Source: a virus. From it: a stretch of DNA of 40,650 nt. The position numbers and the translations under genes were made by a program. This document shows, piece by piece, positions 7,852 to 34,800 of this stretch. Below the pieces are notes generated by a model. That model made no database searches. It saw only the letters and a program-made list of their open reading frames with translations, and had not been told where the DNA came from. Numbering within the stretch: the first letter of the stretch is position 1; every line of letters begins with the position of its first letter. Location: the IMG/VR virus record IMGVR_UViG_3300029305_001264, one strand, 5' to 3'.

Positions 7852-7898
7852 ACCCCGGAGGAAGCGGTCCTGAGAGGATCGGTACTCCGGGGTTTTTT
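7852..7898 (+). terminator. Rho-independent terminator
   Basis: Outer stem ccccggag/ctccgggg with an inner stem ggtcc/ggatc, followed by TTTTTT. Confidence 0.75.
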
Positions 7899-7907
7899 GC
7901 ATTGTGA

Positions 7908-7949
7908 CCGGGGGATTGCCACGGCTGCGGAGCAGCCTCGCAATGACCG
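7908..7949 (+). repeat. Conserved-flank hairpin element, copy A
   Basis: GGGGGATTGCCAC-ggctg(cggag)cagcc-TCGCAATGACC. Confidence 0.8.
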
Positions 7950-7950
7950 A

Positions 7951-7987
7951 TAAAAAATAAGCGCCCCGGGGAATGACCCTGGGGCGG
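7951..7987 (-). terminator. Terminator of the repressor gene (minus strand)
   Basis: Stem cgcccc(ggg)/(ccc)tggggcg. On the minus strand it is followed by CTTATTTTTTA, 4 nt after the repressor stop. Confidence 0.6.
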
Positions 7988-7990
7988 TTA

Positions 7991-8368
7991 TTACTTATCG
8001 AGGGATTCGTAGAGCTCCCGGAACATGTCTTCCAGGGCCTGGAGTTCTGCTTCCGATTTGGAGCAGATCATTTTGATGACCGCTTTCTTCAGACGGCTGG
8101 AGCCGGTGAGGGCGGAGCCTACAAGTTCGGCGATCTCCTCTTCCTCAGACTTGGCGCAGCGCATTGGCTCCAGGCCGTGGCGCAGCCAATCTTCGTTGAT
8201 GCCGTAGGTATGGCATACACTGGCGATTACTTCTTCTTTTGGTGAAGTTTTTCCGTATTCAATGTTTTTGATCTCACTTCTGGTTCTGTGTGCCCTTGCC
8301 GCAAATTCCTCCTGAGAAAGGCCGGTGCTGTCACGAAGTATCCGGAAGCGATCATTTATAGTTTCCAT
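7991..8368 (-). CDS. CI-like XRE-family repressor (125 aa)
   Basis: The start at ATG 8368 has GGAGGTG 6 nt upstream. HTH LSQEEFAARAHRTRSEIKNIEYGKTSP. Divergent from the early operon. Confidence 0.8.
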   Translation of the reverse strand: METINDRFRILRDSTGLSQEEFAARAHRTRSEIKNIEYGKTSPKEEVIASVCHTYGINEDWLRHGLEPMRCAKSEEEEIAELVGSALTGSSRLKKAVIKMICSKSEAELQALEDMFRELYESLDK

Positions 8369-8389
8369 TTGGTTCACCTCCATGACACT

Positions 8390-8418
8390 ATTGTACATCA
8401 ACAAAATTGTGTTGTCAA
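8390..8418 (-). promoter_or_regulatory. Leftward (repressor) promoter: TTGACA-N17-TACAAT
   Basis: On the minus strand the -35 is at 8413-8418 and the -10 at 8390-8395, with an exact 17-nt spacer. Confidence 0.65.
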
Positions 8419-8516
8419 CCCAAAAATAATCAAAAAATTGTGTCAAAAGGGTTGACAACACAAAACAGGTGTGATAATATGGGTTCACAACACATAAGAG
8501 CGGTGTTCACAACACC
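8407..8516. promoter_or_regulatory. Operator-like boxes GTT(G/C)ACAACAC x4
   Basis: TTGTGTTGTCAACC (8407-8420) is the exact reverse complement of GGTTGACAACACAA (8450-8463). Two further boxes, GTTCACAACAC, lie at 8484-8494 and 8505-8515. The first two boxes contain the two -35 hexamers. Confidence 0.55.
8452..8480 (+). promoter_or_regulatory. Rightward early promoter: TTGACA-N17-TAATAT
   Basis: The -35 is at 8452-8457 and the -10 at 8475-8480, with an exact 17-nt spacer. Confidence 0.7.
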
Positions 8517-8538
8517 AAAAATACGATGTGTTCGTCCA

Positions 8539-8577
8539 GTCCGGGGATAGAGAACAGCCTAGGAAATCTAGTAAGTT
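8539..8577 (+). promoter_or_regulatory. Box-promoter copy 1: GTCCGGGGATAGAGAA-N17-TAAGTT
   Basis: 16-nt box at 8539-8554 and hexamer at 8572-8577. Confidence 0.45.
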
Positions 8578-9002
8578 GGTACGCAAGCCCCTATTGATCG
8601 CCTGTGAAATTGAGTTACCCGGGGACAGCAAGATGCCCGCCCAGATCGCCTTCCGGACGGACACCTCTGCTGATTTGTGTTCACTGACCGCAGAATGCCA
8701 CCATCACTGCAGTGGTAAAGGGATGCGAGCCCGAATGGCATTCGACTGAGGCGACAGTTGCTTAGATCAGCCCTCCCGCTTACGGAGCGACCAGACTGTC
8801 AGTTGTGCCTGACAGCGACTGCGGGAGAGTTGCCGAACACACAGATCGGGATAGGCATTAAGAAATCGATAAGGAGGTCCTTAAAGAGTTTCATGATGCA
8901 TCACCCCTTTCCGTGATAATCCCAGGCCTGCCCGGGTGATTCAATTTTACAGGCGAAGGAAAACAGCATCAAGTCCAGAATAACGGACAGAAGGAGGCCA
9001 AT

Positions 9003-9245
9003 ATGGCAAATGAAAAAATTACCGATGAGCAGGTGGAGCTGGAGATCCAGAGGCTTCAGGAATCGGAAGCGGTAAGGCTGGCGCGGCGGGAGATCGAGGT
9101 GCGGAAGCGGCGGCGGAAGTACCTCTACTATCTTCGGCAGATGGAGAAGAAGGGCAGGGCCCTGATGGAGGCCGGGGTTACCTGGGAGATGCTTCACGAT
9201 GAAAGCTATCTTGCTGAAATGCTGGAGGCGGCTGCGGAGGGGTGA
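9003..9245 (+). CDS. Hypothetical protein (80 aa), first convincing ORF of the rightward operon
   Basis: GAAGGAGG RBS. Charged helical sequence. Confidence 0.6.
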   Translation: MANEKITDEQVELEIQRLQESEAVRLARREIEVRKRRRKYLYYLRQMEKKGRALMEAGVTWEMLHDESYLAEMLEAAAEG

Positions 9246-9480
9246 TGCCCTCCCAGGGGAAGCGCATTTGATATGGAGCGGTAGGTAACGAGGAAGTAGT
9301 GAGCCGGAAGGCCGTTCAAGTCGGCCTCGCTCCAAACTGTTGCCGGATGGGCCATCCACCTGAGGTGACAGATACGATGTATGTGTCCTCCCTGATCGAT
9401 TCTCTTTGCAAAATACGAAGGGCGGCGGATGGGCCGCCCGGGGGGATAAGGAAATTTGGTTTTTGGTTTCGTCAGAGTTT

Positions 9481-9510
9481 CGGGCGGGTCATGACCCGCC
9501 CCTACAAAGG
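9481..9510 (+). repeat. GC palindrome element E, copy 1
   Basis: CGGGCGGGTCATGACCCGCCCCTACAAAGG. Its core GGGCGGGTCATGACCCGCCC is a perfect palindrome. Near-identical copy at 16651-16680. Confidence 0.8.
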
Positions 9511-9537
9511 GCAGTAATTTGAAAGGGGGTGCGGAGG

Positions 9538-9660
9538 ATGCCTGAAAATATCGTTGATTTCCTGGAGAAGATCAAGGCCATTAAGGGCGAGGCTTATGTG
9601 GAAGGTCTGGTGGCCGGTGTGGAGCTGGCAAGCCAGGAGAAGGAAGAAGAGGAGGAGTGA
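9538..9660 (+). CDS. Small acidic hypothetical protein (40 aa)
   Basis: ATG 9538 preceded by AAGGGGG and GGAGG, stop at 9658-9660. Below the ORF-track size cut-off. Confidence 0.35.
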   Translation: MPENIVDFLEKIKAIKGEAYVEGLVAGVELASQEKEEEEE

Positions 9661-9669
9661 CGGCAGTTG

Positions 9670-9721
9670 CCCTCTCAGTCACGGCATGCGCCGTGCCAGC
9701 TCTCCCAGAGGGAGAGCCATG
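9670..9721 (+). repeat. 52-bp structured repeat F, copy 1
   Basis: CCCTCTCAGTCACGGCATGCGCCGTGCCAGCTCTCCCAGAGGGAGAGCCATG, identical to 17797-17848. Here it is followed by a T-rich run. Confidence 0.85.
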
Positions 9722-9753
9722 AATTTGTTTTTATTTTGAAAGGAGGATTTTTT

Positions 9754-9951
9754 ATGGAAATCAATGAAAAGCGTTTGATCGTTCATGAGGATATGCCGGA
9801 TGCCGGTGAGGTTCAGAAGTGGCTGAAGATCTGCAGCCGGGATGATGCCGGGGAGCGCTGCAAGGAATGCCCCTGGAATAAGGATCCTTATGAGAACGGC
9901 TGCGGGAAGCTGCTGGCGGATGCGGCACGGCTGATCGCATTCCTGATGTGA
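9754..9951 (+). CDS. Small Cys-containing hypothetical protein (65 aa)
   Basis: AAAGGAGGA RBS. Motif CKECPWNKDPYENGC. Confidence 0.55.
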   Translation: MEINEKRLIVHEDMPDAGEVQKWLKICSRDDAGERCKECPWNKDPYENGCGKLLADAARLIAFLM

Positions 9952-9964
9952 GGAGGAGGCGGCT

Positions 9965-10258
9965 ATGCCCAGAATCCGGCAATACGCTGACCGGGATGCG
10001 CTGAAGGATCTCCGGGGGGAGATCGAGGCCCAGGGCTGCCGGTATGGCTACAAGAGCCAGAAGGCCCTGGCTGTGCCGCTGGGGGTGAGCCAGGGGACCG
10101 TGTGCAACTGGATGAAGGACCTGGACGGGGTCCGGCTCAGGGATCTGCGGACCATGGTGAAGAAGCTTAAGCTGGACCCGGTGATCCTGATGAAGGCGCT
10201 TGGGTACACTTCGGCGGATATTAAAAAAATAGGAGGGAATAACAGTGATCGGTCCTGA
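9965..10258 (+). CDS. HTH DNA-binding protein (97 aa)
   Basis: GAGGAGGAGG RBS. The segment SQKALAVPLGVSQGTVCNWMK is HTH-like. Confidence 0.6.
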   Translation: MPRIRQYADRDALKDLRGEIEAQGCRYGYKSQKALAVPLGVSQGTVCNWMKDLDGVRLRDLRTMVKKLKLDPVILMKALGYTSADIKKIGGNNSDRS

Positions 10259-10505
10259 ACAGAAGGGAAAATACCTGAACCAGAAGTCTGTGGAGGATAT
10301 CCTGCGGGAGAAGCGGGAGCGGGCTGAGGAGCGGGCTCAGATGCAGCGCCGGGCCAAATTCCACAGGTGGATGTGGGCACTGGCCTTGGTGGCCGGGGCC
10401 GGGGGTATGATCCACATGGTCCTGAACGGGCTCATCGATATGACGATCGGTGTGTGGCTGCTGGCGGTGCTCTGCGCCGTGTGCGGAAGGGGGACTGCTC
10501 TATGA
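10245..10505 (+). CDS. Small membrane protein (86 aa, two TM segments)
   Basis: GTG start after GGAGGG. Hydrophobic segments WMWALALVAGAGGMIHMVL and IGVWLLAVLCAVC. Confidence 0.5.
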   Translation: MIGPEQKGKYLNQKSVEDILREKRERAEERAQMQRRAKFHRWMWALALVAGAGGMIHMVLNGLIDMTIGVWLLAVLCAVCGRGTAL

Positions 10506-10804
10506 CCGGCGGCGAGGTCCACAAGGACCGGATGGCCCGATACCAGGCGGAGTATTACCGGAAGCATCGGGAGAAGAAACTGGAGCGGCAGCGGTCATAC
10601 TACCAGAAACACCGGGAGGAGCGGATCCGAAAGCAGAAGGAGTACAATGCCCGCCATAAAAAGGAAATATCCGCACGGAGGGCAGAGGCTTATGCCAAAG
10701 ACCCGGAAAAGCAGCGGCAGCGGAGCAAAGATTACTACTGGAAAAACCGGGAGAAGATCGCCCGGAAAAATGCTGAACGGAAGGCGGTGCGGTCGGATGG
10801 CTAA
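10502..10804 (+). CDS. Basic 15-residue-repeat protein, diverged paralogue (100 aa)
   Basis: ATG overlaps the upstream stop. Five degenerate units of the (Y)Y-x-K/N-x-R/K-E/D-K type: YYRKHREKK, YYQKHREER, YNARHKKEI, YAKDPEKQ, YYWKNREKI. Confidence 0.6.
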   Translation: MTGGEVHKDRMARYQAEYYRKHREKKLERQRSYYQKHREERIRKQKEYNARHKKEISARRAEAYAKDPEKQRQRSKDYYWKNREKIARKNAERKAVRSDG

Positions 10805-11309
10805 ATATACTCCGGAGGAACTGGATAAGGATTTCCGCCAGACCAAGGAGGAGATCATGGCCGGCCGGAAGCGGAGAGACGCCGAGTATCATGCCGCCTA
10901 CTATAAGGCCAACAAGGATAAGATCGCCGAGCGGCAGGCCGCCTACTATGAGGCCAACAAGGATAAGATCGCCGAGCGGAAGGCCGCCTACTATGAGGCC
11001 AACAAGGATAAGATCGCCGAGTATCAGGCCGCCTACCGGGAGGCCAACAAGGATAAGATCGCCGAGCGGCAGGCCGCCTACTATGAGGCCAACAAGGATA
11101 AGATCGCCGAGTATCAGGCCGCCTACCGGGAGGCCAACAAGGATAAGATCGCCGAGCGGCAGGCCGCCTACAGAGAGAAAAACCGGGATGCTTACAATGC
11201 GTATCATCGGGAATATCGGCGGAGGCTGCGGGAGCGGCGGAAGGCGGAGAAACTGGCAAATAGCCTTATGACCGGGGGATCGCCACTTTCTCTTCGCCCT
11301 TCGCGATGA
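10797..11309 (+). CDS. 15-residue tandem-repeat protein (170 aa)
   Basis: ATG 10797 overlaps the upstream gene end. Six near-perfect AAYYEANKDKIAE(R/Y)Q units. Confidence 0.65.
   Translation: MAKYTPEELDKDFRQTKEEIMAGRKRRDAEYHAAYYKANKDKIAERQAAYYEANKDKIAERKAAYYEANKDKIAEYQAAYREANKDKIAERQAAYYEANKDKIAEYQAAYREANKDKIAERQAAYREKNRDAYNAYHREYRRRLRERRKAEKLANSLMTGGSPLSLRPSR
10893..11162 (+). repeat. Tandem 45-bp repeat x6, with a 90-bp higher-order unit
   Basis: Units begin at 10893, 10938, 10983, 11028, 11073 and 11118. Several reading frames on both strands stay open across the array. Confidence 0.95.
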
Positions 11310-11369
11310 CTTGGTTTCATAAAAAAACCGCTCTCCGGTGGGGAGACCGGAAAGCGGTGAGGAAGATTT

Positions 11370-11412
11370 GGGAGATTGCCACACCAGTCTGAGGACTGGT
11401 TCGCAATGACCC
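11370..11412 (+). repeat. Conserved-flank hairpin element, copy B
   Basis: GGGAGATTGCCAC-accagtc(tgag)gactggt-TCGCAATGACC. Confidence 0.8.
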
Positions 11413-11459
11413 GGGATTTTGGAACAGTGCTATTTTAGCACAGATTGGAGAAATAATCA

Positions 11460-13388
11460 ATGAAAAATATTCGCATTGACCGGCTGCGGCTGGAGAACTT
11501 CAAATGCCATGAGGCCCTGGAACTGGACTTTGACGGCCAGGACCGGACGATCTACGGCGATAACGCCACGGGCAAGACCAGCATCTATGACGGCATGATC
11601 TGGCTGCTTTTCGGCAAGGATTCCGCCGGAAACGGTGAGAAGAACATCGATATCAAGCCCCTGGACAGAAATGGCAATGTGAAAGACCACGATGCCATTA
11701 CCTCTGTGGAGGCGGTGATGACCGTGGACGGGGAGGAGATCACCCTGAAGCGGACCCTGCGGGAGATCTGGAGCACCAGAAGAGGCTCCATGGAGGCGGT
11801 GTATGACGGGAATACCAGCGACTACTTTGTGAACGGTGTGCCCTGCAAGAAAAATGCCTTCGACAAGGCGGTTGGTGAGCTTGTCGATGAGGATCTGTTC
11901 CGGATGCTGACTTCGGTGAGCTGGTTCGCCGCCGGCATGAAATGGCAGGACCGCAGAAGCGTCCTCTTTGACATTGCCGGAAATATGAGCGATGAGGAGA
12001 TCATGGACCGGGATGAGCGGTTTGAAGAGCTGAGAAGCGCCAAGGGCAAGCTGACGGTGCAGGAATACAAGACGAAGCTCCTGCACCAGAAGAAGGGTCT
12101 TAGCGGCACCCGGGAGGACGGCCCCGCACGGATCAGCGAATGCCAGAAGATCCTGGAGAGCCTGAAGGGCATCGACTTTGAAGAGGCCAGGAACCGGGAG
12201 GCGGTGCTCACAAGCCGCAGAGATCGGCTCAGCGGGGAGATCATCGCCCTGGAGCAGGACGCGGCGCTGCAGAAAAAGAAGCTGGAGAAGCGGGAAGCGG
12301 AGCTGCAGCTGGAGGATCTGGAGCGGCGGAACCGTACATACCGGGAGCAGCAGCGAACCACCATGCCCAGCAGTGAGACTCTGAACCGGAGCGCCCACAA
12401 GGAGGCTATCCGGGCGGAGCAGCTGAAGAACACCATCAGCCAGAGCCGGAAGACGGTGAGCCGCCTGGAAGCGGATATCCAGGAAAGCCGGGATATGTGG
12501 GTGGCGGTGAACGCGGAGGCTTTTGTGGGCGGACAGTGCCCTGCCTGCGGCCAGAAGCTGCCTTTTGAGGCGCTGGAGAAGGCCAGCCGGGAATTCGATG
12601 CCAAGAAAGTGCTGCGACTGGATAAGATCGCCCGGGAGGCGGAGCGGCTGAAAGAGCAGCTGGCGCAGACCATGAACCGCATCGGCCAGATGGAGCAGGA
12701 ACTGGCGGAACGGGAGGAAGCGGCCCGGGAGCTGGGACGGCAGGCGGAGGAGGCCAGGACCATGGCCGGTACGGTCCGGGACCTGGAGGATTACGAAACG
12801 CTTCGGGCAGCGGCGGCGGCGAATGTGCGGGCTGTTGCTGACCAGATCGATGCCATGACCGCCGACAGCGGAAAGGTGATCCGAAAGCGCCGGGAGGAGC
12901 TGGAGGATGTGACCCAGGAGCTGAATGAGGTATGGCGGACTCTGGCGAAGGAGGGGTACCGGGATACCATGCAGCGGCGGATCGCGGAGCTGAAGGAGGA
13001 TATGCAGACAGCATCGGCGGCTATCGAGGCTATCGATAAGATGCTGTATGCCATCGAGGACTTTACTAGGTATAAGTGCCGTTTCGTGGAGGAGTCGGTC
13101 AACAGCCATTTCCGGCTGTGCAGCTTCCGGCTGTTCCGGGAGCAGGCCAACGGCGGTATCGAGGAGCGGTGTGATGCCCAGCAGGGCGGTGTGCCCTTCC
13201 TGGGACTGAACAACGGCATGCGGGTGAATGTTGGCATCGACATCATAAACACCCTGAGCCGGCACTATGGGGTGACGGTGCCGCTGATCGTGGACAACGC
13301 AGAGGCGGTGACCCAGCTGGAGGAGAGCGGCGCTCAGGTGATCCGGCTGGTGGTAAGCGAAAATGATAAGGAGTTGAGGATCGTATGA
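11460..13388 (+). CDS. Rad50/SbcC-like SMC-family ATPase with central zinc hook (642 aa)
   Basis: N-terminal Walker A GDNATGKTS. Long central coiled coil with CPAC (12537-12548) at mid-length. C-terminal PLIVDNAEAV resembles Walker B / D-loop. Confidence 0.8.
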   Translation: MKNIRIDRLRLENFKCHEALELDFDGQDRTIYGDNATGKTSIYDGMIWLLFGKDSAGNGEKNIDIKPLDRNGNVKDHDAITSVEAVMTVDGEEITLKRTLREIWSTRRGSMEAVYDGNTSDYFVNGVPCKKNAFDKAVGELVDEDLFRMLTSVSWFAAGMKWQDRRSVLFDIAGNMSDEEIMDRDERFEELRSAKGKLTVQEYKTKLLHQKKGLSGTREDGPARISECQKILESLKGIDFEEARNREAVLTSRRDRLSGEIIALEQDAALQKKKLEKREAELQLEDLERRNRTYREQQRTTMPSSETLNRSAHKEAIRAEQLKNTISQSRKTVSRLEADIQESRDMWVAVNAEAFVGGQCPACGQKLPFEALEKASREFDAKKVLRLDKIAREAERLKEQLAQTMNRIGQMEQELAEREEAARELGRQAEEARTMAGTVRDLEDYETLRAAAAANVRAVADQIDAMTADSGKVIRKRREELEDVTQELNEVWRTLAKEGYRDTMQRRIAELKEDMQTASAAIEAIDKMLYAIEDFTRYKCRFVEESVNSHFRLCSFRLFREQANGGIEERCDAQQGGVPFLGLNNGMRVNVGIDIINTLSRHYGVTVPLIVDNAEAVTQLEESGAQVIRLVVSENDKELRIV

Positions 13389-14122
13389 AGATAAAAGACA
13401 GAGCCAAGCCCAAGGCCCCGCCGGTGGAGCCGGGTGTTTACATGGCCGTTTGCATCGGCATCGTGGATCTGGGAGAGCAATACTCCGAGAAATTCAAAAG
13501 CTACTCCAATAAGGTGAAGTTCGTGTGGGCACTGCCCGGTGAACTGATGACCATTGACGGCAAGGAGGAGGAGCGGCAGCTGAGCAAGGAATTCACCGTA
13601 TCCGTGAGCAAAAAGGGCAGCCTCAGAGGATTTCTGGAGAGCTGGAACGGCAGAAGCTACTCCGATGAAGAATTCGGTGAGCTGGATGTATTTGAGCAGC
13701 TGGGGAAGGCATGCCAGCTCCAGGTGGTGCTGAACGAGACCAAGGAATACTCCAATGTGGCGAATCTGATGCCCATCCCCAGAGGCATGCCCGCGCCCCA
13801 GAGCAAAACGGCCATGTATATCTGGGATATGGAAAAGTGGGACGATGACCTTTTCCTGAAGCTGCCGGAGTGGACGAGGGAGCAGATCATGAAGTCCAGC
13901 CAGTACCAGAAAGAGCATGTGCCGGTGACGGATGTGGCGGTGGATGGTGGAACCAACTTGGGCACGACCCCTCAGTCGGCTTCGCCGACAGCTCCCCTTA
14001 CGCAGGGGAGCCAAGGGCTGGGTGGAACCAACGGGGGGATTGCCACGGCCTCCGGCCTCGCAATGACCGGAAACGGGAACATGACCGGGACTGCCGCTAC
14101 GGGAGGAGGCGCTCCTTTTTGA
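13385..14122 (+). CDS. Recombination-module protein, possibly DUF669-type ssDNA-binding/accessory (245 aa)
   Basis: ATGA coupling to the ATPase gene. The N-terminal PPVEPGVYMAVCIGIVDLGE pattern resembles DUF669-type phage proteins (family assignment from memory only). Low-complexity Gly/Thr tail. Confidence 0.55.
   Translation: MKIKDRAKPKAPPVEPGVYMAVCIGIVDLGEQYSEKFKSYSNKVKFVWALPGELMTIDGKEEERQLSKEFTVSVSKKGSLRGFLESWNGRSYSDEEFGELDVFEQLGKACQLQVVLNETKEYSNVANLMPIPRGMPAPQSKTAMYIWDMEKWDDDLFLKLPEWTREQIMKSSQYQKEHVPVTDVAVDGGTNLGTTPQSASPTAPLTQGSQGLGGTNGGIATASGLAMTGNGNMTGTAATGGGAPF
14033..14068 (+). repeat. Conserved-flank hairpin element, copy C (inside the 3-prime end of the preceding CDS)
   Basis: GGGGGGATTGCCAC-ggcc(tcc)ggcc-TCGCAATGACC. 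It is translated as GGIATASGLAMT. Confidence 0.8.
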
Positions 14123-14835
14123 GATTTGAGAGCATTGCATCTTCCAGCCACGGAAATGCCTATATGCTGGATGACGGGTGGACGAAGCTGCTGATCGAGT
14201 GCGGTCTGACTTATAAGAAGCTTACCCAGGGGCTGGGCTGGAAGCTGTCGGAGATCGATGGTGTGCTGGTGAGCCATGAGCACAAGGACCATGCCGGGTG
14301 CGTGGAGAAGCTGCTTAAGGACGGCATGGACTGCTACATGAGCAGCGGGACGGCGGAGGCTCTGGAGCTGCCTGAAAAGCTGCTGGAGCTGGCTCACGGC
14401 ATCGAGGCTGGGGAAATGTTTACGGTGGGGAGTATGCACATACTCCCCTTCCAGACCTACCACGATGCCCTGGAGCCGCTGGGGTTCTGCATTCAGAGCG
14501 AAGTGGACTGGGATATCTTCGTATACGCCATCGATACGGTGAATCTCCCGTACCGGTTCCCGGGGGTGAACATCCTGGCGGTGGAGGCGAATTTTGACAA
14601 GGAGATCCTGGCACGGTGCGAGAAGATGCCGGAAAAAGTGCGCAAGCGTGTAAGCAATACCCATATGGAGATCGAGATGCTGTGCCGGTGCCTTAAGCGG
14701 ATGGATCTGCGGGCCTGCCGGGAACTGCACCTGATGCATCTGTCGGATGCAACGAGCCATGAGGGGCATTTCATCAACAAGGTGCGGCGGTATGTGCCAC
14801 CGCATGTGAAAGTCTATACCTGCGGAAGGGAGTGA
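14119..14835 (+). CDS. MBL-fold metallo-hydrolase (238 aa)
   Basis: TTG start after GGAGGAGG gives the typical N-terminus MRFESIASSSHGNAYML. The motif SHEHKDHAG corresponds to HxHxDH. Confidence 0.75.
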   Translation: MRFESIASSSHGNAYMLDDGWTKLLIECGLTYKKLTQGLGWKLSEIDGVLVSHEHKDHAGCVEKLLKDGMDCYMSSGTAEALELPEKLLELAHGIEAGEMFTVGSMHILPFQTYHDALEPLGFCIQSEVDWDIFVYAIDTVNLPYRFPGVNILAVEANFDKEILARCEKMPEKVRKRVSNTHMEIEMLCRCLKRMDLRACRELHLMHLSDATSHEGHFINKVRRYVPPHVKVYTCGRE

Positions 14836-14860
14836 TTTAGCTGTGGCCAGACCCGGCATT

Positions 14861-15574
14861 ATGATCTATTTCGATATGCAAAAACCGCTGTCCTGGCTGA
14901 CGGATTCGGAAAAAGGGCGGCTGTTTGATGCCATCCTGCAATACGGTCAGACCGGGGAGGAGCCTGATTTTGAGGGGATGCTGGCGATGGCATGGAGCTT
15001 CATCCAGCCGAAACTTGATAAGGATCAGGCAGAATATGACAAGACCGTTTTAAAGCGGCAGTATGCCACCTGGTGCCGAAAAATGAAGCAGAGAGGATCG
15101 CCTGATCTGCCGTTTGATGAATGGGTGCTGCTAAGTGATGCGCAGAGGGATCACATGATATCACATGATATCACATGCAATCACATGATATCACATGATA
15201 TCACATGGTATCCAACTACAACTACAACCCCAACCACAGCTACAACCCCAACTACAACGGCAACCCCAACTACAACGGCAACTGCAAATACAACATCATC
15301 CACAACCACAGCCGCAGAGGAACCGGATGGTGCCTGCGCACCGGTAGGCGCTGCCGCGCCGAAGGATGATGATGAGAAAATGAAAATGCTGATGAATGAG
15401 ATCAGGGGGATGAATCTTTCGCAATTCCAGACCGATCTCTTACTGAACAAACTGGGGGTGGATATGTTTATCAATTACGCGAAGCGGCTGCGGGCTTCCA
15501 TTGCCAGCGGCAACGATCCGGGCAGCCATATGTCAACGATACTGTGGTGGTATGCTCAGGATCATGGGGCCTGA
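14861..15574 (+). CDS. Replisome-organiser / replication-initiator-like protein with internal origin repeats (alternative GTG start at 14843)
   Basis: The N-terminal LTDSEKGRLFDAILQYGQTGE resembles phage replisome-organiser N-domains. A poly-Thr/Pro linker separates two domains, and the iterons lie inside the gene. Confidence 0.6.
   Translation: MIYFDMQKPLSWLTDSEKGRLFDAILQYGQTGEEPDFEGMLAMAWSFIQPKLDKDQAEYDKTVLKRQYATWCRKMKQRGSPDLPFDEWVLLSDAQRDHMISHDITCNHMISHDITWYPTTTTTPTTATTPTTTATPTTTATANTTSSTTTAAEEPDGACAPVGAAAPKDDDEKMKMLMNEIRGMNLSQFQTDLLLNKLGVDMFINYAKRLRASIASGNDPGSHMSTILWWYAQDHGA
15151..15210 (+). repeat. Six tandem 10-bp iterons TCACATGATA (candidate origin of replication)
   Basis: Exact 10-bp period: TCACATGATA x2, TCACATGCAA, TCACATGATA x2, TCACATGGTA. 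An A+C-only stretch of about 100 nt follows. Confidence 0.9.
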
Positions 15575-15576
15575 AT

Positions 15577-15810
15577 ATGTCCAGCGGGTCTTACTGGCAG
15601 CAGGAGGTGCAATGCCCGTTTTACCGCCAGGATGACGGACGGAGCCGGATCCACTGTGAGTGGATGATCGCAAACAGCACGGTGAGCATCAATTTTCAGA
15701 GGAGGCCGGACTTCCGGACACAGATGAAGACTTTCTGCTGCGATAAATACAAGAACTGTGAGATTTTCAGAATGATCATGGAAAACAAATATGAGGAGGA
15801 TATGGAATGA
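15577..15810 (+). CDS. Cys-rich hypothetical protein (77 aa)
   Basis: ATG 15577. Cys-containing segments QCPFYRQDD...IHCEW...FCCDKYKNC. Confidence 0.5.
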   Translation: MSSGSYWQQEVQCPFYRQDDGRSRIHCEWMIANSTVSINFQRRPDFRTQMKTFCCDKYKNCEIFRMIMENKYEEDME

Positions 15811-15974
15811 GCTGCGATGATCTTATCGCTGTGGTGCCGGCGGAGCCGGACAGCCATTTCCGGCTGCTGGACTGCGGCTGCGGAGGGGATACTGCCTATG
15901 TACAAAAGGCGGACGGTTCCTGGGCGGTGCGCCGAGGCCGGTGTCGCTATTTGACCCGGGATATGGGAGGATGA
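15807..15974 (+). CDS. Small hypothetical protein (55 aa)
   Basis: ATGA coupling to the upstream gene. Motif LDCGCGGD. Below the ORF-track cut-off. Confidence 0.35.
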   Translation: MSCDDLIAVVPAEPDSHFRLLDCGCGGDTAYVQKADGSWAVRRGRCRYLTRDMGG

Positions 15975-16113
15975 TCTGATGGGATCTGTATTTTTAGTGC
16001 TGCTGGCAGTGCTTCGATGAAGATGCCAGGATCTACAGTGACATTTTTGAAATCGATGCGGAGGTCAAGTCCCATTCCGTGATCAATCAGAAGTACAGCG
16101 GGAGGGACTGACA

Positions 16114-16344
16114 ATGCCTGATAAGATCACAGAAGATCAGCTCGATGAGCTTTTGGACGCAAGAGATTACTTTGGAGCGGACAAGTTTGTTAAGCTGATG
16201 GCAGAATACACCGGGATTGTAGTTAAGACATACACAGGTTACCAGTATTTTGATGCTGCTGACAACTTTCTTGGTGACAGTGAGTGGAATAGTCTTCGGG
16301 ATATTCTTGAAGAAGCGGAAATAGAGGTGGTAGACAATGGCTGA
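16114..16344 (+). CDS. Acidic hypothetical protein (76 aa)
   Basis: GGGAGGG RBS. Confidence 0.55.
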   Translation: MPDKITEDQLDELLDARDYFGADKFVKLMAEYTGIVVKTYTGYQYFDAADNFLGDSEWNSLRDILEEAEIEVVDNG

Positions 16345-16645
16345 GAGTTGGCGGGAGGCCTGCTGGAGGGCGGAGCAGGAGGTGGCGGAGTATCGGGGGA
16401 CGATCATTCCTGCGATGGCGGAGAAGCTGCGGGAGTTGCGGCAGACCGCGGATGAGCTGGAGGAGGCGAACCGGAACCTGACACGGGAACTGCGGTTGGC
16501 GGAACGGGAACGGGATGTCGCCAGCCGGCTGATGATGTGGATGGAAAAGGAGCTGGAACTTACCATGGAGTTTATCCAAGACCAGGGGCTGGAATGGGCG
16601 CTGATGAGCTGGCTGGCGGGGACGGAAGACGAGCCGCCGTTTTGA
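16337..16645 (+). CDS. Coiled-coil hypothetical protein (102 aa)
   Basis: Overlaps the upstream gene by 8 nt. Confidence 0.55.
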   Translation: MAESWREACWRAEQEVAEYRGTIIPAMAEKLRELRQTADELEEANRNLTRELRLAERERDVASRLMMWMEKELELTMEFIQDQGLEWALMSWLAGTEDEPPF

Positions 16646-16650
16646 GGATG

Positions 16651-16680
16651 CGGGCGGGTCATGCCCCGCCCCTACAGAAA
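16651..16680 (+). repeat. GC palindrome element E, copy 2
   Basis: CGGGCGGGTCATGCCCCGCCCCTACAGAAA. Lies between a stop codon and the next RBS. Confidence 0.8.
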
Positions 16681-16682
16681 GG

Positions 16683-17096
16683 ATGGATGATTTGGGCAAT
16701 CCGAAGGTGGCAATGCGGGCGGAGATCGAGGCGAAGCTTGCGGCCAAGTATGAAAAAAAGCTCCGGGAGATGGAGCGGCTGTTTGAGGAACGGCTGGCCA
16801 TGGAACGGCTGAATTTCCTGAAGAAGCTCCGGATGGCTATGCAGCAGAGCTGTGACGGCGCTGTGATGGCGGCTGAGGATGTGTTCAGCTGCACGGAGGA
16901 GCAGGCGGTGGAATTTATTGCCGCCCACATGGAGAATGTGAACAAGATGAGCCATATGGCGGTGGTGGAGGATAAGGATGACCCGGATATGTGGTGGACC
17001 AAGGACAGCGTCGACCGAAGGATCCGCAGGATCGTGGGGGAGAAAAACTTCCAGCCCTGGGATCAGCGATATGACTATGAGGAGGAAACGGAATGA
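16683..17096 (+). CDS. Hypothetical protein (137 aa)
   Basis: AAAGGA RBS. ATGA coupling to the next ORF. Confidence 0.55.
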   Translation: MDDLGNPKVAMRAEIEAKLAAKYEKKLREMERLFEERLAMERLNFLKKLRMAMQQSCDGAVMAAEDVFSCTEEQAVEFIAAHMENVNKMSHMAVVEDKDDPDMWWTKDSVDRRIRRIVGEKNFQPWDQRYDYEEETE

Positions 17097-17275
17097 CAGA
17101 CCAGGAACGGGAGATGACCTATACCAACGCACTGGTCCGGTACGGTGAGGAGAATCAGCTTGTGGTGGCCATCGAGGAGCTGAGTGAGCTGCAGAAAGAG
17201 GTCACGAAATTCCTCCGGGGTATCGGCAATGCCGGGAATCTGGCGGAGGAGACAGCGGATGTGCTGATATGCTGA
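17093..17275 (+). CDS. MazG-like NTP pyrophosphohydrolase fragment, apparently C-terminally truncated (60 aa)
   Basis: AIEELSELQKEV...LAEETADVLIC matches the EExxE...EExxD helix pair of small phage MazG-like proteins. The ORF stops right after the second motif, and hairpin copy D follows. Confidence 0.4.
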   Translation: MTDQEREMTYTNALVRYGEENQLVVAIEELSELQKEVTKFLRGIGNAGNLAEETADVLIC

Positions 17276-17312
17276 GAAAGGAGGCGCTGGCTTCCGGATC
17301 AAAAAACCAACC

Positions 17313-17348
17313 GGGGGATTGCCACGGGGCTTCGCCCCTCGCAATGAC
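17313..17348 (+). repeat. Conserved-flank hairpin element, copy D
   Basis: GGGGGATTGCCAC-ggggc(ttc)gcccc-TCGCAATGACC. Confidence 0.8.
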
Positions 17349-17366
17349 CAGAAAGGGAGAAACTGC

Positions 17367-17762
17367 ATGAGAGATTATGAGCCGGACAATCTGGTGATGG
17401 ATTGCCGGAGGGCTATGGAGCTGGGGTATGGGGTCCATTACGGGCACTACAAGGCGGACCACCCCCACACAAGGGACACCTCCCTGGACCCGGAACCTGA
17501 GCACAAATATCCGGAGCGGGAGTGCAAAAACTGCGGGGAGCCATTCCGGCCCCACAGAGGAGACCAGATATACTGCTGCGAGGAGTGCAGAATTGAATAC
17601 AACCGGCTGCATACAATGAAAAACCCCAACAGGGCACGGCAAAAGTTTTGCAGAAGGTGCGGAAAACCCATTACCGATCCGAAGCAGCGGGTGTTTTGCG
17701 GCAAGGTGTGCCTCTACAGCTATGACCAGGAGCGGAGACACCGGAAGAAAAAGGAATCATGA
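17367..17762 (+). CDS. Double zinc-ribbon protein (131 aa), last gene before the late operon
   Basis: ATG 17367 after AAGGGAG. Cys pairs CKNCGEPF...YCCEEC and CRRCGKPI...FCGKVC. Confidence 0.6.
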   Translation: MRDYEPDNLVMDCRRAMELGYGVHYGHYKADHPHTRDTSLDPEPEHKYPERECKNCGEPFRPHRGDQIYCCEECRIEYNRLHTMKNPNRARQKFCRRCGKPITDPKQRVFCGKVCLYSYDQERRHRKKKES

Positions 17763-17789: not shown

Positions 17790-17796
17790 GCATGTA

Positions 17797-17848
17797 CCCT
17801 CTCAGTCACGGCATGCGCCGTGCCAGCTCTCCCAGAGGGAGAGCCATG
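17797..17848 (+). repeat. 52-bp structured repeat F, copy 2
   Basis: Identical to 9670-9721. A partial third copy (tccctgagggagagcc) lies at 17884-17899. Confidence 0.85.
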
Positions 17849-28877: not shown

Positions 28878-31800
28878 GTGGCTTTTTCCGTTAGCGATGC
28901 GCTTTCTGAGAGAAAAGACCGGAAAGCGGCACAGAGCGGCCAGAACAGTTCTGGGAACATGGGCGCAAATAATGCTGGCCAAAGCAGACAGACCATCACG
29001 GGCAGTTTCAGTGTGTCGGATGCGCTCCGGAACAGGCAGAACCGAAATGGGAATCAGGGCAGCAATGTATCTGATCCCACCAGTATCATCGATCGCTACA
29101 ACTCTTTGGTAGGACAGTATAATGACAGCATTGGCGGCGGGCCCAGCTTCGGTGTAAGTGCGGATGATGTTCTTGGCTCCCAGCGGGACATGAGAGCGGA
29201 ATCCGCAGCCATTTACAACGAGCTGGATTCCTACAGAGCATATCTGGGAGACGATGTTGTCGATGATATGCTGTCTTCCCTTGAGGGCATGGTGAGCGGC
29301 TGGAACGATATCGTTTCCAAAGCAAAATACTATTCCCAGTGGGAAAGCCCGGAAGACTATGAGCACTTTACATATCTGAGCGGAATGGACCTGGCGGCGC
29401 AGACGCAGGCTATTGAGGATCAGGAGGCGGCGATCGCTGACCTTAAAAAGGCACGGCCCGGAGGGATCCTGGGCATGGCGCTGCATGGGGCGGGGTACTA
29501 CTCCACGGACGATTACCTGGCGGCGAATGATGATATCCAGGCGGCGGAGGACCAGCTGGCTCAGATGCGGCAGGACCTCTACGATGCTACCCTGCTCCAG
29601 CAGGGACAGCAGGAAAGCGCCTGGGAGAAGCAGTACAGCGGCATGAGCTATGACCAGCTGATGCCCATCATCCAGGGCATGGAGGAAGGTGCGGAGCGGG
29701 ACTGGCTGGAGGGCTATGCGCCCAGCACCATGACTGCCCAGGATATGACGGAAAAACAGGCGGAGAACAATACCGAGATCTACTACCTGGATCAGTTTGA
29801 AAAGGAATGGGAAGCCATTCTGGAGCGGGAATTCATGCTGCAAAACAGCGGGGAATGGACCAAGGCACAGCAGGACCAGATCGATGCGGAAAAGGAAGCG
29901 CTGCTGCAGAGATACGGTGTGGATTCCCTGGAGGCTGCACAGAGCCGCAGAGAGACCCTGATGGCTGAAAACTGGGAGCTGGATAACCGGGCTGCCTATG
30001 ACGCAATCCCGGAAGCGGAAGGCTTCCAGGCCAACAGCGGGGTGCCTGAGGGATACACCACGGGTACCGGCAGCGCAGTGAGCCTCTTTGACTACATCAA
30101 CGATATCGAAGGTGCCAGAGAGCGGGAGACTCTGCGGATGGCCGGACACGGCGAATCGCCCTATGCCATCTATGACTTTATGGACGATCAGCAGATCGGC
30201 ATATTCAACTACCTCTACAATGTCCAGGGCATGGATGCGGCGGAGGATTACCTGCAGTACATCCAGTATGACCTGAATGCCAAACGGAACCAGAGCATCG
30301 CCGCAGGGGCGCAGACCATTGCCCAGGAAGCGGGCGCAGCGGCATCGCTCTTCTCTATCCCGGCGATGATGATGAGCGGTCTGGGGATCCTGGATGTGGG
30401 AATGCAGCACCTGGGACGGGCGGTGAGCGGCGGATATGCGCCCATCGACTATAACCGGGGCGCTATGGCCTACAATACCATCGGCAGTACCATCCGGCAG
30501 ACCAGAGCCCAGCACTACAACGAGAAGGGCACCATCAACCTGAACGAAAACGAGCATCCTATTCTGGCGAGGCTCCTGAACGGCAGAGGCTGGGGCGATG
30601 TATACCAGCTGGGTATGAGCCTGGCGGACAGCTATCTGGTGGGCAATATCGGCAAGGTGACGGGTCTGGGCGGCAAAGCAACGCTGCTCCTCAGCGGAAG
30701 CGCAGCTACCCAGGGTGTGCTGGATGCGGTGGAGAGCGGTGCCAGTGATGAGCAGGCGCTGCTTATCGGTATCCTGAACGGCGCGGCAGAATACCTCTTT
30801 GAAAAATATGAACTGGATAATCTGCTGGGTCAGGACACCAGCTATCTGAAGGCCATCGCCAATCAGGCGCTGACGGAAGGCTTCGGCGAAGGCATGACTT
30901 CTGTGTCCAACGCACTGGTGGACTACCTGGTGATGGCGGAAAACAGCGGCCTGGAGCAGAAAGCCCGGGAATATATGCTGATGGGCTACAGCGAAAGCGA
31001 AGCCATGACCCAGGCTCTGCTGGACATCGCTGCGGATATCGGCTGGGATGTGATCGGCGGTATGGTCAGCGGTGCTGCCATGAGCGGCGGCTTCCAGGCT
31101 ACCCAGGCGGTGCTGACTCCGGCAGATGTTCGCTCCAACAGCAAGCGGCTGCGGGAGCTGGGCATGAGCCGGTTTGATGCGGACCAAAAAGCGGCGGAGC
31201 TGTATGACCTGGCCCAGGGCTATGGAGATGCTGCCGGGAACTTCCAGCGCAACTATGCTCCGGGGCAGGACACCGGGGAATATGCCCTGGAATTCCGGAC
31301 GGCCTACGAAATGGGCAAGGCGGGTGCTGACCGGCAGCGGCTGGGAAGCGACAGTTTCCGGGTGATGAGCCAGAGCCAGAGGGATATCGCCTATGACACC
31401 GGTGTGGAAGCCCGGAAGAAGGCTGCGGGCCGGGAAAAGACGGAGGTAAAAGCCACTCTGGAGGTGAGCGAAGACCAGAAAACCGTGCGAACCGACACCG
31501 GCAAGGAAGTGAAGATCGATGGTTTCGCATCCGTGGGCGATAAGGCTACTCTGAAAGTGGGCAGCGACACGGTGAAGATGACCGATGTGAGCTATGCCAG
31601 TGCGGAAGAAGCGGCGATGTATGAGACCGTGGCAACGGTGGCCGGGTCTGCATCCACAGCCAATGCCATGCTGGAGCAGCAGCGAAAGAGCGATGTTTCC
31701 CCCGTGGATTTTGCCAACGGACTCTGGGAAGCCTATGAGGCGGGCAGAATCGGCAGTGCGACCCGGGCGGAGCTTGGGCAGATGGAATTTGCCGGGAAGC

Positions 31801-34800
31801 TGCCGCTGGCGGTGCGGAACATCGCTTACAGCCGGGGCATTGACAGGGGCAGATATCAGGCCAATGCGGCGGAAGCAGTGCTGAAAGCCAAGGGCAAGCA
31901 GAACAAGGGCCAGCGGAAAGAAGGAAAGCTGCATTTCGACCGGAAGGGCAGGACCTTCAGCGATATTCAGGAGACCGGTCTGGCGGCGATGGAGAGCTTC
32001 AGCAAGGCGCTGGGCATCCAGGTGTATGTTTATGAGTCCTTCGTGAAAAACGGGGAGCGGGTCTATAAGAACGGCAATGGAGAGACCGTAAAGGCTCCCA
32101 ACGGCTTCTACGATCCGGAGACCGGAGCAATACACATCGACCTGAATGCCGGCAACTTCGGTCAGGGCACCATGCTGTTTACCCTGGCGCATGAGCTGAC
32201 CCACTACATCAAGCAGTGGAGCCCGGTGCGGTTCCGGGTGCTGACGGAAGCGGTCCTGAGAGCCTACAGCACCAAGGGCCAGAGCGTGAATGCGCTGGTG
32301 GAAAAGCAGATGGCAAAGGCCAAAGAGAGCGGCCGGAATCTGACACCGGAGCAGGCACTGGAAGAAGTAGTGGCGGACAGCATGGAGGCCATGCTGGTGG
32401 ACGGCAGCTTCGGAAAGGTGCTGGCGGACATCAAGGCCCGGGACAAAACGCTGTGGCAGAAGATCAAAGACTGGTTACTTGAAATTGCGGATAAGCTGAA
32501 AAAGGCTGCCGATGCATACCGGGGCATGAAACCTGACAGCGTGGAAGGCCGGATGGTCCGGGAGATGGATGGAGTCTTTGATGAGATCCAGAAGCTGTTT
32601 GCCGAGGGTCTGGTGGAGGCCAGTGAGAATTTTGCGGCTGCGGAAGGGCAAAAAAATACCACCCAGGAGGGTGGGGTGAAGTATTCGGACAAATATCTTG
32701 CCGCAGAAGTTGATCCCAATGTACTCAACATGGTCACGCAGGTCACATCTGGAAACTATTCCGACAACGATAAAGTTGAGCTTGGAAAAGTACCGGATGA
32801 TATCGCTGCGAAAATCAAAGAGATTACTGGTGTAGATCCTTCTGGTTTTCGTATTGTCATTGAGGCGAGGCAGATGCTTCATATCCTAAATGGCCATGGG
32901 TCAAACGGGGATGCTAACCGCTCGATGAAAGATCCGAATGATATTGCCAGGATCAAATATGTTATTTTTACTCCAGATGACATTCGTGGACCAGGCATGA
33001 CCAGAGCATATACGCATCAGCGAAAGGGAAAAGCAAGGCCTGCCCCCACCGTATTGTACGAAAAAAACATAGGCGAGAAATCGTACTATGTTGTGCAGGC
33101 CGTTCCTGACACAAAAGCAAAAACAGTATACATCGTTTCTGCTTTTATTGGCCCAAGTGGATACAAAAAAGAAGCCTCACAGCTCATCAATGCCTCAAAT
33201 GGCCCTGATGCAACGGCTAAACCCGGTTCTGTGGTGGCTTCTAAGAACAGTATACGAAAAGCTGAAGCAATTGTCAACCCCAAATCTGTGGAAGCCATGG
33301 ATCTGGAAGTAGACGAGAAGACGGAATCGGTAGCACCTACCGTTATGATGTCGGAGCGGACCTGGACGCAGTCTGAGTATGTGCAGGAGCGGGATATGGC
33401 TGCGCTGGCCATCAGCAAGGCAATCGGTGTAAGCATTCAGAAGGCAAAGGACTACATCGACAGCGTGAACAGCATCGCCAAGATGATCGCCGATGACCGG
33501 ACCAGGCTTGACTACTTCTCCAGTCCCGGAAGAAGCAGTTTTATCGGTAATGTGGAATACGGCGGCAGCTTTGATTTCTCTACACTTTGCAAGAAGCGGC
33601 GGCTGCTGACGGGCACCTTTACCGCTATCCAGAAAGCACTTCCCAATACGGCGCTGACGGCCAATGAGATCCTGGAGATCCGCAAGCGGATGCAGGATGC
33701 CGGTCTGGAGGTAAGCTGCGGGCTGTGCTATGTAGAAGGCAGCAGAGCCAATATGGGACAGTTTGCCAAGGAATTTCTGCGGCTGTACAAGCAGTATTAC
33801 CCGGATGGATGGCAGCCCAATATGGCGGATGTGAACACTCCCGAGGGAATCGAGTGGGTGCGGATCAATCACCCGGAGGTCTATGAACAGTATGAATACT
33901 TCTGGAACCACTACGGTACCCTGAAGCCCGGTGACAAGAATCTGTTTGCCAGCCAACAGAAGCCCAAGCTCTACCAGCTGCACACGGAGTACAAGGGGGA
34001 GATCCTCCAGAAATTCCGGAACGATGACAATGTGGAGGAGAAAAACATCAACGGCGGCATCCGGCTGCAGAGTTTCTCCGACTTTGAAATCGTGCATCTG
34101 ATCGACACCATGCAGATCATTATGGATATGAGCCTGGTTGGGCTTGCCGGTCAGGCATACACAAAGGTGCCGGACTTCGCATGGGCGCTGGGCGATACCG
34201 GCCTGAAGATCAATCTGAGCCTGATCGCAAAAGGTGTGGACGAAAATGGAAACCTTATCTTTGACGATGTGGAAGGTATGCCCATTCAGGAGGCCATGCG
34301 GCTGCGGGAGCGGTATTCGGAGAATGTTGGTACGATCCTGGTAGCCTTCAATGATGCACAGCTGAAAGCGGCGATGGCTGACCCCAGAGTGGACTTCATC
34401 ATCCCCTTCCACAGAAGCCAGTGGAAAAAGAGTCAGTATGAGGCTATGGGCCTGCCGAAGAATACCAAGGACTACACCTACATGCAGAACGAAAAGTACA
34501 TCAAGCCCCAGTACCATGAGTACAGAGGCAGGATGGTACGGGATAAGGCCACCAACTACATGCCCAACGAATACTGGGACTTCAGCAAGAGCGGAACGGA
34601 AAATGCCAGGGCTTATCTGGAAATGTGCGCCAGGAACAATAAGCGGCCCAAGTTCTACAAGCTTCTGACGGACAACAAGGACGGAAGCTACTCCCTGAAG
34701 GAAGACGGAAGCACGGACGGCTATTGGAAGCTGCTGATCGATTTCAAGATGTATGACAATCAGGGCAATGGCAGTCCCCAGCGGCCGGTGACTCCGGAAT

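Follow-up and report, generated by a model that had tools for sequence, protein, structure and literature searches.

What are hairpins with constant flanks and freely varying interiors doing at the gene junctions of a phage? The question is raised by IMG/VR record IMGVR_UViG_3300029305_001264, a viral stretch of 40,650 nucleotides (hereafter the window), in which four such hairpins, A to D, had been noticed. The original prediction took them for a selected structure, offered RNase III-type processing sites, factor-dependent terminators, binding sites for an RNA- or DNA-binding protein and a miniature mobile palindromic element as possible roles, and recognized no described motif that matched. 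This last point does not hold, as the kind of motif was published in 2025 as the NTS of Neisseria and the more general Ssn-related motif (SRM; Chenal et al. 2025, Nat Commun 16:2388; PMC11893778). On comparison of sequences, the elements of the window, which number five, are very probably solo members of the SRM class, directional DNA hairpins that would work in single-stranded form. The novelty is modest. It lies in a sub-family with a bipartite stem, which is very widely distributed and which also occurs, apparently conserved, in phages.

The pattern GATTGCCAC-N(5-30)-TCGCAATGACC has exactly four matches in the window, all on the + strand (A, 7914–7948; B, 11374–11411; C, 14038–14068; D, 17317–17349), and none in 100 dinucleotide-preserving shuffles of it. 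The strings first reported agree with the sequence, and the starts given for B, C and D are right to within 1 nt, but the GGGGG of copy A begins at 7910, not 7908. A covariance-model search had been proposed as a check. Our model, R1, was trained on 38 copies from other contigs and on none from the window; it recovers the four intact copies (B, 62.6 bits; A, 44.2 bits; C, 40.1 bits; D, 33.1 bits) and reveals a fifth, E, at 11272–11316 (21.0 bits, E 5e-4), after which the best match in the window reaches only 10.8 bits. In copy E, the proximal stem is ATCGC/GCGAT, a compensated change; the inner hairpin has decayed and no hairpin is predicted. Rfam 15 gives no match at gathering thresholds in the window and none at the copies even at E up to 10, and megablast of the region against phage records finds no match.

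In all four intact copies, ATTGC is predicted to pair with GCAAT, followed by the CAC/TC internal loop and a self-complementary distal stem, as first described. The predicted fold is the same on both strands, with RNA and with DNA parameters, and most foldings add a third short helix from the flanks (GGG/CCC-type). Each intact copy is thereby modelled as an inverted repeat of 20–50 nt that folds as a hairpin, with a stability that is moderate for A and B (z of −2.1 to −4.6) and unremarkable for C and D (z of about 0 to −1.9). Copy B, for example, has the inner stem ACCAGTC-TGAG-GACTGGT.

The pairing is better seen in the family than in the single copy. Compensated variants of the proximal stem, which no search pattern forced, comprise ATTCC/GGAAT (11 copies), ATCGC/GCGAT (5), ATTAC/GTAAT (2) and ATTCT/AGAAT (2), with few single mismatches. 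The left internal loop is CAC in 149 copies, TTC in 34 and CGC in 8. When 38 copies are aligned without gaps, both partners have changed in 8 of 12 pairs; in the distal stem, 101 cells are changed on both sides, a number reached by 0 of 500 shuffles, and the covariation score lies above all 500 shuffles and all slid controls. The high share of paired cells is partly due to sequence selection, but the diversity of pair types is not. Both stems covary across the family, which bears out the earlier view of a selected structure rather than a simple duplication.

The family extends far beyond this phage. The pattern ATTGCCAC-N(5-30)-TCGCAATGAC matches at least 120 stretches in viral contigs, with 181 copies among the matches listed, and at least 120 stretches in a set of bacterial contigs with one genome per species. 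By our own arithmetic, a few hundred matches would be expected by chance in 596 Gb for 18 fixed bases and 26 gap lengths; we take the matches as real because nearly all of them enclose a palindrome and are also conserved at bases that the pattern does not cover. The consensus of 167 unique viral copies is S-R-G-ATTGCCAC-[7-30 nt palindrome]-TCGCAATGAC-A; the G before ATTGC, which is the trailing C of the other strand, is present in 97% of them and is not fixed by the pattern. In viral and genomic stretches alike, the flanks are constant and the inner palindromes differ from copy to copy.

The genome matches listed come from Oscillospiraceae, Faecousia, Dehalococcoidia and other Chloroflexota, many lineages of the Candidate Phyla Radiation (CPR), Rickettsiales, Alpha-, Beta-, Gamma- and Deltaproteobacteria, Bacteroidota, Planctomycetota, Nitrospirota, Elusimicrobia, Melainabacteria, Treponema and others. 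Among isolates, Methylosinus trichosporium OB3b, Methylocystis, Halomonas, Aulosira and Novosphingobium carry the element, unannotated; the OB3b copy sits between convergent genes. Two or more copies occur in 53 of the 120 genome loci listed (8-kb stretches), where the only recurring neighbours are housekeeping genes (ABC ATPase, CarB, tRNA synthetases, YchF); the neighbours in the viral loci listed are phage structural genes, in no fixed position relative to the element. Literature queries by DNA words, translated peptides and general keywords on repetitive extragenic palindromic (REP) elements found no account of an ATTGC/GCAAT hairpin family. The element is not phage-specific; it is a widespread bacterial DNA repeat, and the outcome that the original prediction had named as speaking against it, ordinary host REP-like sequences, is essentially what we find.

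Which strand folds can be read from the loops and mismatches. Among 539 unique copies, on the strand on which the hairpins were first described, C-TNC-G triloops outnumber C-GNA-G triloops 114 to 4 (p ~5e-29), and isolated stem mismatches are A·C in nine cases and G·T in none. The complement therefore shows C-GNA-G triloops and G·T wobbles, which indicates that the strand selected to fold is 5'-GTCATTGCGA..GTGGCAATC-3'. In the window this is the − strand, which serves as the operon's template and is not the sequence of its mRNA. The commonest inner sequence, GTCGCTTCGCTCC, becomes GGAGC-GAA-GCGAC on the complement and contains the GCGAAGC mini-hairpin, with tandem G·A pairs flanking it. The GCGAAGC mini-hairpin is an exceptionally stable DNA structure. 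The inner part of copy D likewise reads GGGGC-GAA-GCCCC on the − strand, with a GNA triloop. On that strand all five window copies have the form ..GTCAT[T/C]GC..GC[A/G]ATC.., that is, a GTCAT head and a trailing C; copy A, which is GGGGGATTGCCAC-GGCTGCGGAGCAGCC-TCGCAATGACC on the + strand, reads 5'-GGTCATTGCGA..GTGGCAATCCCCC on the putative Ssn-type active strand.

The arrangement of the copies leads to a gene. Neighbouring copies form head-outward "-+" pairs in 88 cases, compared with 22, 20 and 30 for the other three arrangements. On one strand such a doublet reads GTCAT..GCAATC, a spacer of 4–120 nt, and GATTGC..ATGAC. Beside 84 doublets, direct repeats that could be target-site duplications occur at chance frequency only. 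A screen for inverted copies 300–2500 nt apart returned one locus, L180, from an Oscillospiraceae metagenome-assembled genome, in which a 97-residue open reading frame (ORF) lies between a "-" copy and a "+" copy. The inner tails of the two copies, ATCTCCCGGTAC and GTACCGGGAGAT, are identical to those of nearby gene-less doublets. The 97-residue protein is a single GIY-YIG domain (Pfam E 1.4e-16), and a second homologue, on the viral contig L098, also lies among copies.

The association was examined from the protein side with 80 metagenome loci from gut, sediment, freshwater and soil, fetched only by similarity to the L180 protein (57–83% identity). A GTCAT-type hairpin lies within 250 nt of the GIY-YIG gene in 44 of these loci, and on both sides in 23. 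The flanking copies are oriented, "-" upstream in 33 cases and "+" downstream in 32, and the usual layout is GTCAT-hairpin, ribosome-binding site, ORF, hairpin-ATGAC. Up to 250 nt from the gene there are 2.46 hairpins per kb, further out in the same loci 0.24 per kb, and in two control sets 0.016 and 0.019 per kb, which makes the enrichment at the gene about 100-fold over the controls; shuffled GIY-YIG loci give 4 matches in 187 kb. R1, built without reference to these loci, has 93 matches in them, the best of which directly abut the gene.

This is the arrangement described for SsnA. In Neisseria, the NTS is CGTCATTCCCGCGMAVGCGGGAATCYRG, and NTS and SRM flank ssnA genes in the order NTS-ssnA-NTS (PMC11893778). 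SsnA is a 94-residue single-domain GIY-YIG protein (cd10448), and among the Ssn homologues of that study 71% have at least one SRM and 42% have SRMs on both sides (PMC11893778). To be bound by the protein, the hairpin must be single-stranded DNA and come from one particular strand; the cut falls a few nucleotides upstream, and neither double-stranded DNA nor RNA is acted on (PMC11893778). Cleavage is governed by the three bases 5' of the palindrome, and the base most important for binding is the C just after it, whereas the identity of the loop is dispensable and the loop can be replaced or extended (PMC11893778). In N. meningitidis, the Ssn system lowers transformation by NTS-bearing DNA (PMC11893778). 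The authors note the likeness to REP elements with their REP-associated tyrosine transposase (RAYT) and to insertion sequences; phages are not discussed (PMC11893778).

All five window copies have GTC(W) directly 5' and C directly 3' of the palindrome on the active strand. The flanking of single-domain GIY-YIG genes of about 94 residues is a property of the sub-family and not of the window, in which no ssn gene and no GIY-YIG protein of the L180 type was found; the phage copies are therefore solo sites. Two loci link the bipartite hairpins to the canonical motif and to the window. In L480, the protein is 58% identical to that of L180 (E 1e-39) and has a canonical NTS, GTCATTCCCGCGAAAGCGGGAATCCAG, on both sides; in L420, the copies flanking ssn carry the tail CCGGGGGATTGCCAC, which is common to window copies A, D and E. 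The window copies would thus form part of a sub-family of the SRM/NTS of Chenal et al. 2025.

Several observations weigh against this identification, or against regarding the copies as mere passengers. The published SRM string, HGTCWYN(0-2)YYVSBRHN(0-5)WNVSBRGN(0-2)RNCYNB, has no match on either strand of the window, where it misses all five copies, and picks out only 3 of the 80 GIY-YIG loci. Its authors assembled it manually from 29 genomes whose NTS-like repeats have a single stem (PMC11893778), and it is a search tool rather than a definition. As it cannot take a 5-bp stem, an internal loop and a long variable hairpin, the window copies fall outside it, and their membership rests on architecture and gene association, not on the published pattern. 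The other points concern the phage itself. Copies A, B, C and E stand at orthologous sites in phages whose neighbouring proteins are only 78–83% identical, and their recognition parts remain intact in non-coding surroundings that have diverged. Near-identical strains from several samples (≥99.4% identical to the window) carry all five copies, fixed and unchanged, wherever the site is covered, with no empty site among them. Viral copies are, moreover, biased about 2:1 to the sense or G-rich strand (for the G-rich strand, 139 copies against 47 among the viral matches listed); GC skew, used as a proxy for replication direction, gives a modest bias only and is confounded with coding-strand bias.

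The sites themselves can be followed in relatives. Copy A (7908–7953, − as active strand) lies 3' of a +-strand gene block whose end has a hairpin and T-run (~7853–7898), and adjoins the convergent repressor gene 7991–8488(−). In L276–278, whose repressor is 83% identical, the copy at this site differs in its inner hairpin but retains GGGGATTGCCAC and TCGCAATGACC intact, next to non-coding DNA that has diverged. Copies E (11272–11316, −) and B (11368–11416, −) lie between ORF 10647–11309, whose stop codon is a TGA inside copy E, and the SbcC-like gene 11460–13388, upstream of which B stands. The orthologue of E in L121 (1428–1459) is still well formed, with the inner stem kept; that of B in L125 shows compensatory changes, and L121 has a member of a different repeat family in its place. 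Just upstream of copy B, at 11327–11358, there is also a strong terminator-like hairpin with its T-run on the − strand, inside an otherwise all-+ operon; at the same place, related phages carry another hairpin, whose T-run is again on the − strand.

Copy C (14032–14073, −) is translated in frame (..GGIATASGLAMTGN..) as the C-terminal tail of ORF 13385–14122, as originally proposed; in L121, it is ATCGC/GCGAT with a different inner hairpin. Copy D (17311–17354, −) is the same in all near-identical strains that cover the site, and lies between a MazG-like fragment (17093–17275) and the ribosome-binding site of the HNH gene (17367–17762). The suggestion that the element can insert had been drawn from a truncated MazG-like ORF. 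Copy D is 3' of the stop codon of this fragment and so does not itself truncate it. Insertion is supported instead by copy C: the gene ends of relatives lacking it had been proposed for comparison, and in most relatives the protein ends at about residue 186, without the tail.

The relatives comprise 33 viral loci retrieved by the phrog_862 protein (ORF 13385–14122). Only L121–123 (78% identity) and L125 have copies; about 29 of the 33 have none. This distribution fits elements that were gained by one sub-lineage and then kept, their inner parts being exchanged through conversion from other copies or through re-insertion; selection is possible. Orthologous conservation, fixation in strains and the strand bias of viral copies together suggest more than neutral hitch-hiking.

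An alternative is that the phage itself makes use of the copies as DNA and that selection maintains them, as recombination hot spots at module boundaries, as a means of tuning exposure to a host Ssn, or as sites for a phage protein. The recognition parts kept amid diverged DNA and the fixation in every strain sampled speak for it, as do the uniform orientation in multi-copy phage contigs with the G-rich-strand bias, the different repeat family in the copy B slot of L121, and elements at mosaic junctions in L060, L063 and L087. The absence of copies from most related phages does not, nor does the fact that gene conversion or re-insertion would also keep the flanks and explain the swapped inner hairpins; no phage protein partner was identified. 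We regard such a role as improbable.

Equally improbable is that the hairpins act as RNA, as RNase III-type sites, 3'-end stabilizers or factor-dependent terminators of early or middle transcripts. The five window copies are all on the sense strand at gene junctions, A and B have good predicted RNA folds, and any stable transcribed hairpin may incidentally protect an mRNA 3' end. On the 13-kb viral contig L025 (IMGVR_UViG_3300022660_000530), 17 copies in one orientation form tandem arrays of 2–5 at intergenic junctions, in the sense orientation, five of them between a terminase-like gene and the next gene; no phage contig met here is a more extreme carrier of the repeat. With gene orientations from a codon log-odds gene caller that reproduces the gene map of the window, viral copies among the matches listed are sense in 62 cases, antisense in 30, between convergent genes in 4 and between divergent genes in 4. 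The corresponding numbers for the genome matches listed are 20, 22, 16 and 9, and the strand rule expected of an RNA signal is absent. The asymmetry of loops and wobbles places the selected fold on the antisense strand. Copy A is past a terminator-like hairpin and between convergent genes, no T-run follows the stem of any window copy and a terminator scan reports none of them, most related phages do without the copies, Rfam has no match, and the characterized partner acts on single-stranded DNA, not RNA (PMC11893778). The window copies are not, in our reading, RNA signals, and the RNase III sites and factor-dependent terminators of the original prediction give way to two other options on its list, a miniature mobile palindromic element and a site for a DNA-binding protein, both close to the answer reached here.

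Less credible still is a classical REP element or REP doublet (REPIN) mobilized by RAYT, a Y1 HUH transposase, or ends of the IS200/IS605 type. An imperfect palindrome with a conserved non-palindromic head, inverted doublets, arrays resembling bacterial interspersed mosaic elements (BIMEs), a location mostly outside genes and the lack of target-site duplication would all fit. The head is, however, GTCAT and not GTAG or GTGG, a tblastn search of about 280 fetched loci with E. coli RayT yields no convincing match, and the flanked gene is a GIY-YIG nuclease, so that this explanation is already largely refuted. Of the remaining candidates, a miniature inverted-repeat element of a DDE transposon was rejected (doublet ends GTCAT..ATGAC, but no target-site duplication), as was a promoter, since the inner length varies over 7–30 nt and no promoter-like site is called at the copies, although TTGCCA..CGCAAT and ATGACA can be read as −35/−10-like boxes; a K-turn, an RNase P minihelix, an integron attC site and a Holliday-junction (RuvC) site misfit the motif.

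The identification as Ssn-related motifs suggests how the copies could work. Each would be built, on the − strand, as 5'-GTC | ATTGC - GA - [variable hairpin] - GTG - GCAAT | C-3', in which the recognition module would consist of the GTC head, the proximal stem of 5 bp and the C that follows the palindrome. The distal hairpin stands at the position of the loop and would be free to vary as long as it stays paired, hence its covariation. By homology with SsnA, the partner would be a small single-domain GIY-YIG nuclease of about 95 residues that binds the folded single strand and cuts a few nucleotides 5' of the motif. The family comprises the hairpin-ssn-hairpin unit with heads outward, gene-less doublets, arrays and solo chromosomal copies, and would relate to ssn much as REP elements relate to RAYT. 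The phage probably acquired its copies from its host, presumably a Clostridia-type bacterium of gut or rumen such as an Oscillospiraceae, and would have tolerated them at gene boundaries and in one disordered protein tail. There they may mark places where a host Ssn could bind and cut the single-stranded − strand. Recognition by a host Ssn, entry during lysogeny and a largely passenger status are what the comparison would lead us to expect.

For annotation of the phage, a tempting RNA-processing reading is replaced by host-type DNA repeats, and the copies point to a likely gut or rumen Clostridia-type host with an Ssn nuclease. For the Ssn system, the hairpin class found at Ssn-type genes includes a bipartite form with a free distal stem, present in many phyla with its recognition parts almost unchanged and outside the published search motif. 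Phages and prophages carry SRM sites, so an effect of Ssn on single-stranded phage DNA intermediates is now directly testable. A bolder and doubtful proposition, which we put forward tentatively, is that the GTCATTGCGA-type bipartite hairpin is a major pan-bacterial class of Ssn sites missed by the published pattern, and that the phage sites are perhaps non-neutral, given their conservation at orthologous positions, their uniform orientation and the 17 copies within 13 kb of one contig. If so, Ssn and SRM would be far more pervasive than reported, reaching Clostridia, Chloroflexota, CPR bacteria and their phages; Ssn might act on phage single-stranded DNA intermediates, as restriction or as recombination control; and phages would keep sites only in orientations and places that are safe or useful.

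Taken as a whole, the window is the complete genome of a temperate phage. Its two ends are a perfect direct repeat of 127 nt (1–127 and 40524–40650), most simply the overlap of a circular assembly; over a 21.4-kb stretch it is 100% identical to a 40,697-bp contig from JGI sample 3300032167. An integrase and a helix-turn-helix repressor on the − strand are followed by a long +-strand block. This block starts with genes for replication and recombination and includes the SbcC-like ATPase (11460–13388, +), the phrog_862 protein (13385–14122, +), a metallo-β-lactamase (MBL)-fold hydrolase (14119–14835, +), whose TTG start overlaps the stop codon of the preceding ORF, and a DUF6291 protein (14843–15574, +). 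After the HNH gene come the terminase, a P22-type portal, the capsid and a 3674-residue protein. This last, a single ORF at 28878–39902, ends the structural block and has a PBECR3 domain among its precomputed Pfam matches. The MBL-fold hydrolase has a sub-threshold Pfam match to the anti-Pycsar protein Apyc1 (27.9 bits, where the cut-off is 50), and this family is also among its precomputed Pfam matches; the protein may be an anti-defence cyclic-nucleotide hydrolase.

The window holds other repeats as well. A second, unrelated family, CCCT-CTCAGTC-[variable hairpin]-GACAGCTCYCCC-nnn-GGGRGAGCC, is present at 9666–9721 and 17793–17848 (95% identical 59-mers) and at 13968–14012. It occurs in at least 120 stretches of viral contigs, has only weak, sub-threshold Rfam matches to Whalefall-1, and is the family whose member fills the copy B slot in L121. 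Its copy in ORF 13385–14122 is a 63-nt in-frame element (13958–14020), present at this site in L124 and absent in L121. A perfect 12-nt direct repeat, GGTGGAACCAAC, brackets it (13946–13957 and 14021–14032) and looks like a duplication made on insertion.

Tandem repeats are found within two genes. ORF 10647–11309 has seven in-frame 45-nt repeats at 10835–11239 and is called at 95, 140 or 170 residues in near-identical strains, so that the repeat number appears to vary within the population. In the DUF6291 gene, about six tandem copies of ATCACATGAT are followed by 18-nt ACA/CCA-rich (Thr/Pro-type) repeats (15150–15328), with a weak mucin-like Pfam match. The box CGGGGATAGAGAA, finally, occurs on the + strand at 8542, 17925, 23077 and 39919. 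These sites precede gene blocks: the first is where the early operon starts, the second and third come before the packaging and the capsid genes, and the fourth follows the giant gene. At three of these sites TATGAT or TAAGAT follows about 17–19 nt later. The boxes may be phage-specific promoters; a sigma-70 scan of the window does not call them.

How do the hairpins compare with known systems? The RNase III hairpins of T7 and SP82 early mRNAs are also repeated, have an asymmetric internal loop and stand at gene junctions of a phage operon, but they act as RNA, in one orientation, and are phage-specific, whereas the present family is pan-bacterial, occurs in both orientations and would fold on the antisense strand in the window. 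REP elements, BIMEs and REPINs with RAYT resemble it in that they are short, imperfectly palindromic and have a conserved head, in forming inverted doublets as well as arrays, in flanking a gene present once, in recognition as single-stranded DNA, which is putative here, and in the lack of target-site duplication; they differ in the head (GTAG, here GTCAT) and in the enzyme, a Y1 HUH transposase there and a GIY-YIG nuclease here. Of the Neisseria dRS3 repeats and intergenic mosaic elements (NIMEs), dRS3 (ATTCCC-N8-GGGAAT) is the palindromic core of the NTS and resembles the ATTCC/GGAAT variant found here, although the window copies have ATTGC/GCAAT with a long variable insert, and dRS3 was originally defined without oriented flanks. 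The closest relatives are the SRM and NTS. From these the present copies differ in a bipartite stem (5-bp ATTGC/GCAAT, GA/GTG internal loop and variable distal hairpin) that the published degenerate search string does not match, and in being solo copies in a temperate phage without ssn. What they have in common is a directional hairpin repeat of 20–50 nt, in which a conserved GTCAT head precedes the palindrome on its 5' side and a C follows it directly, evidence for one active DNA strand, copies that flank a single-domain GIY-YIG gene of about 95 residues in the order hairpin-gene-hairpin, and dispersed intergenic copies and clusters in many phyla.

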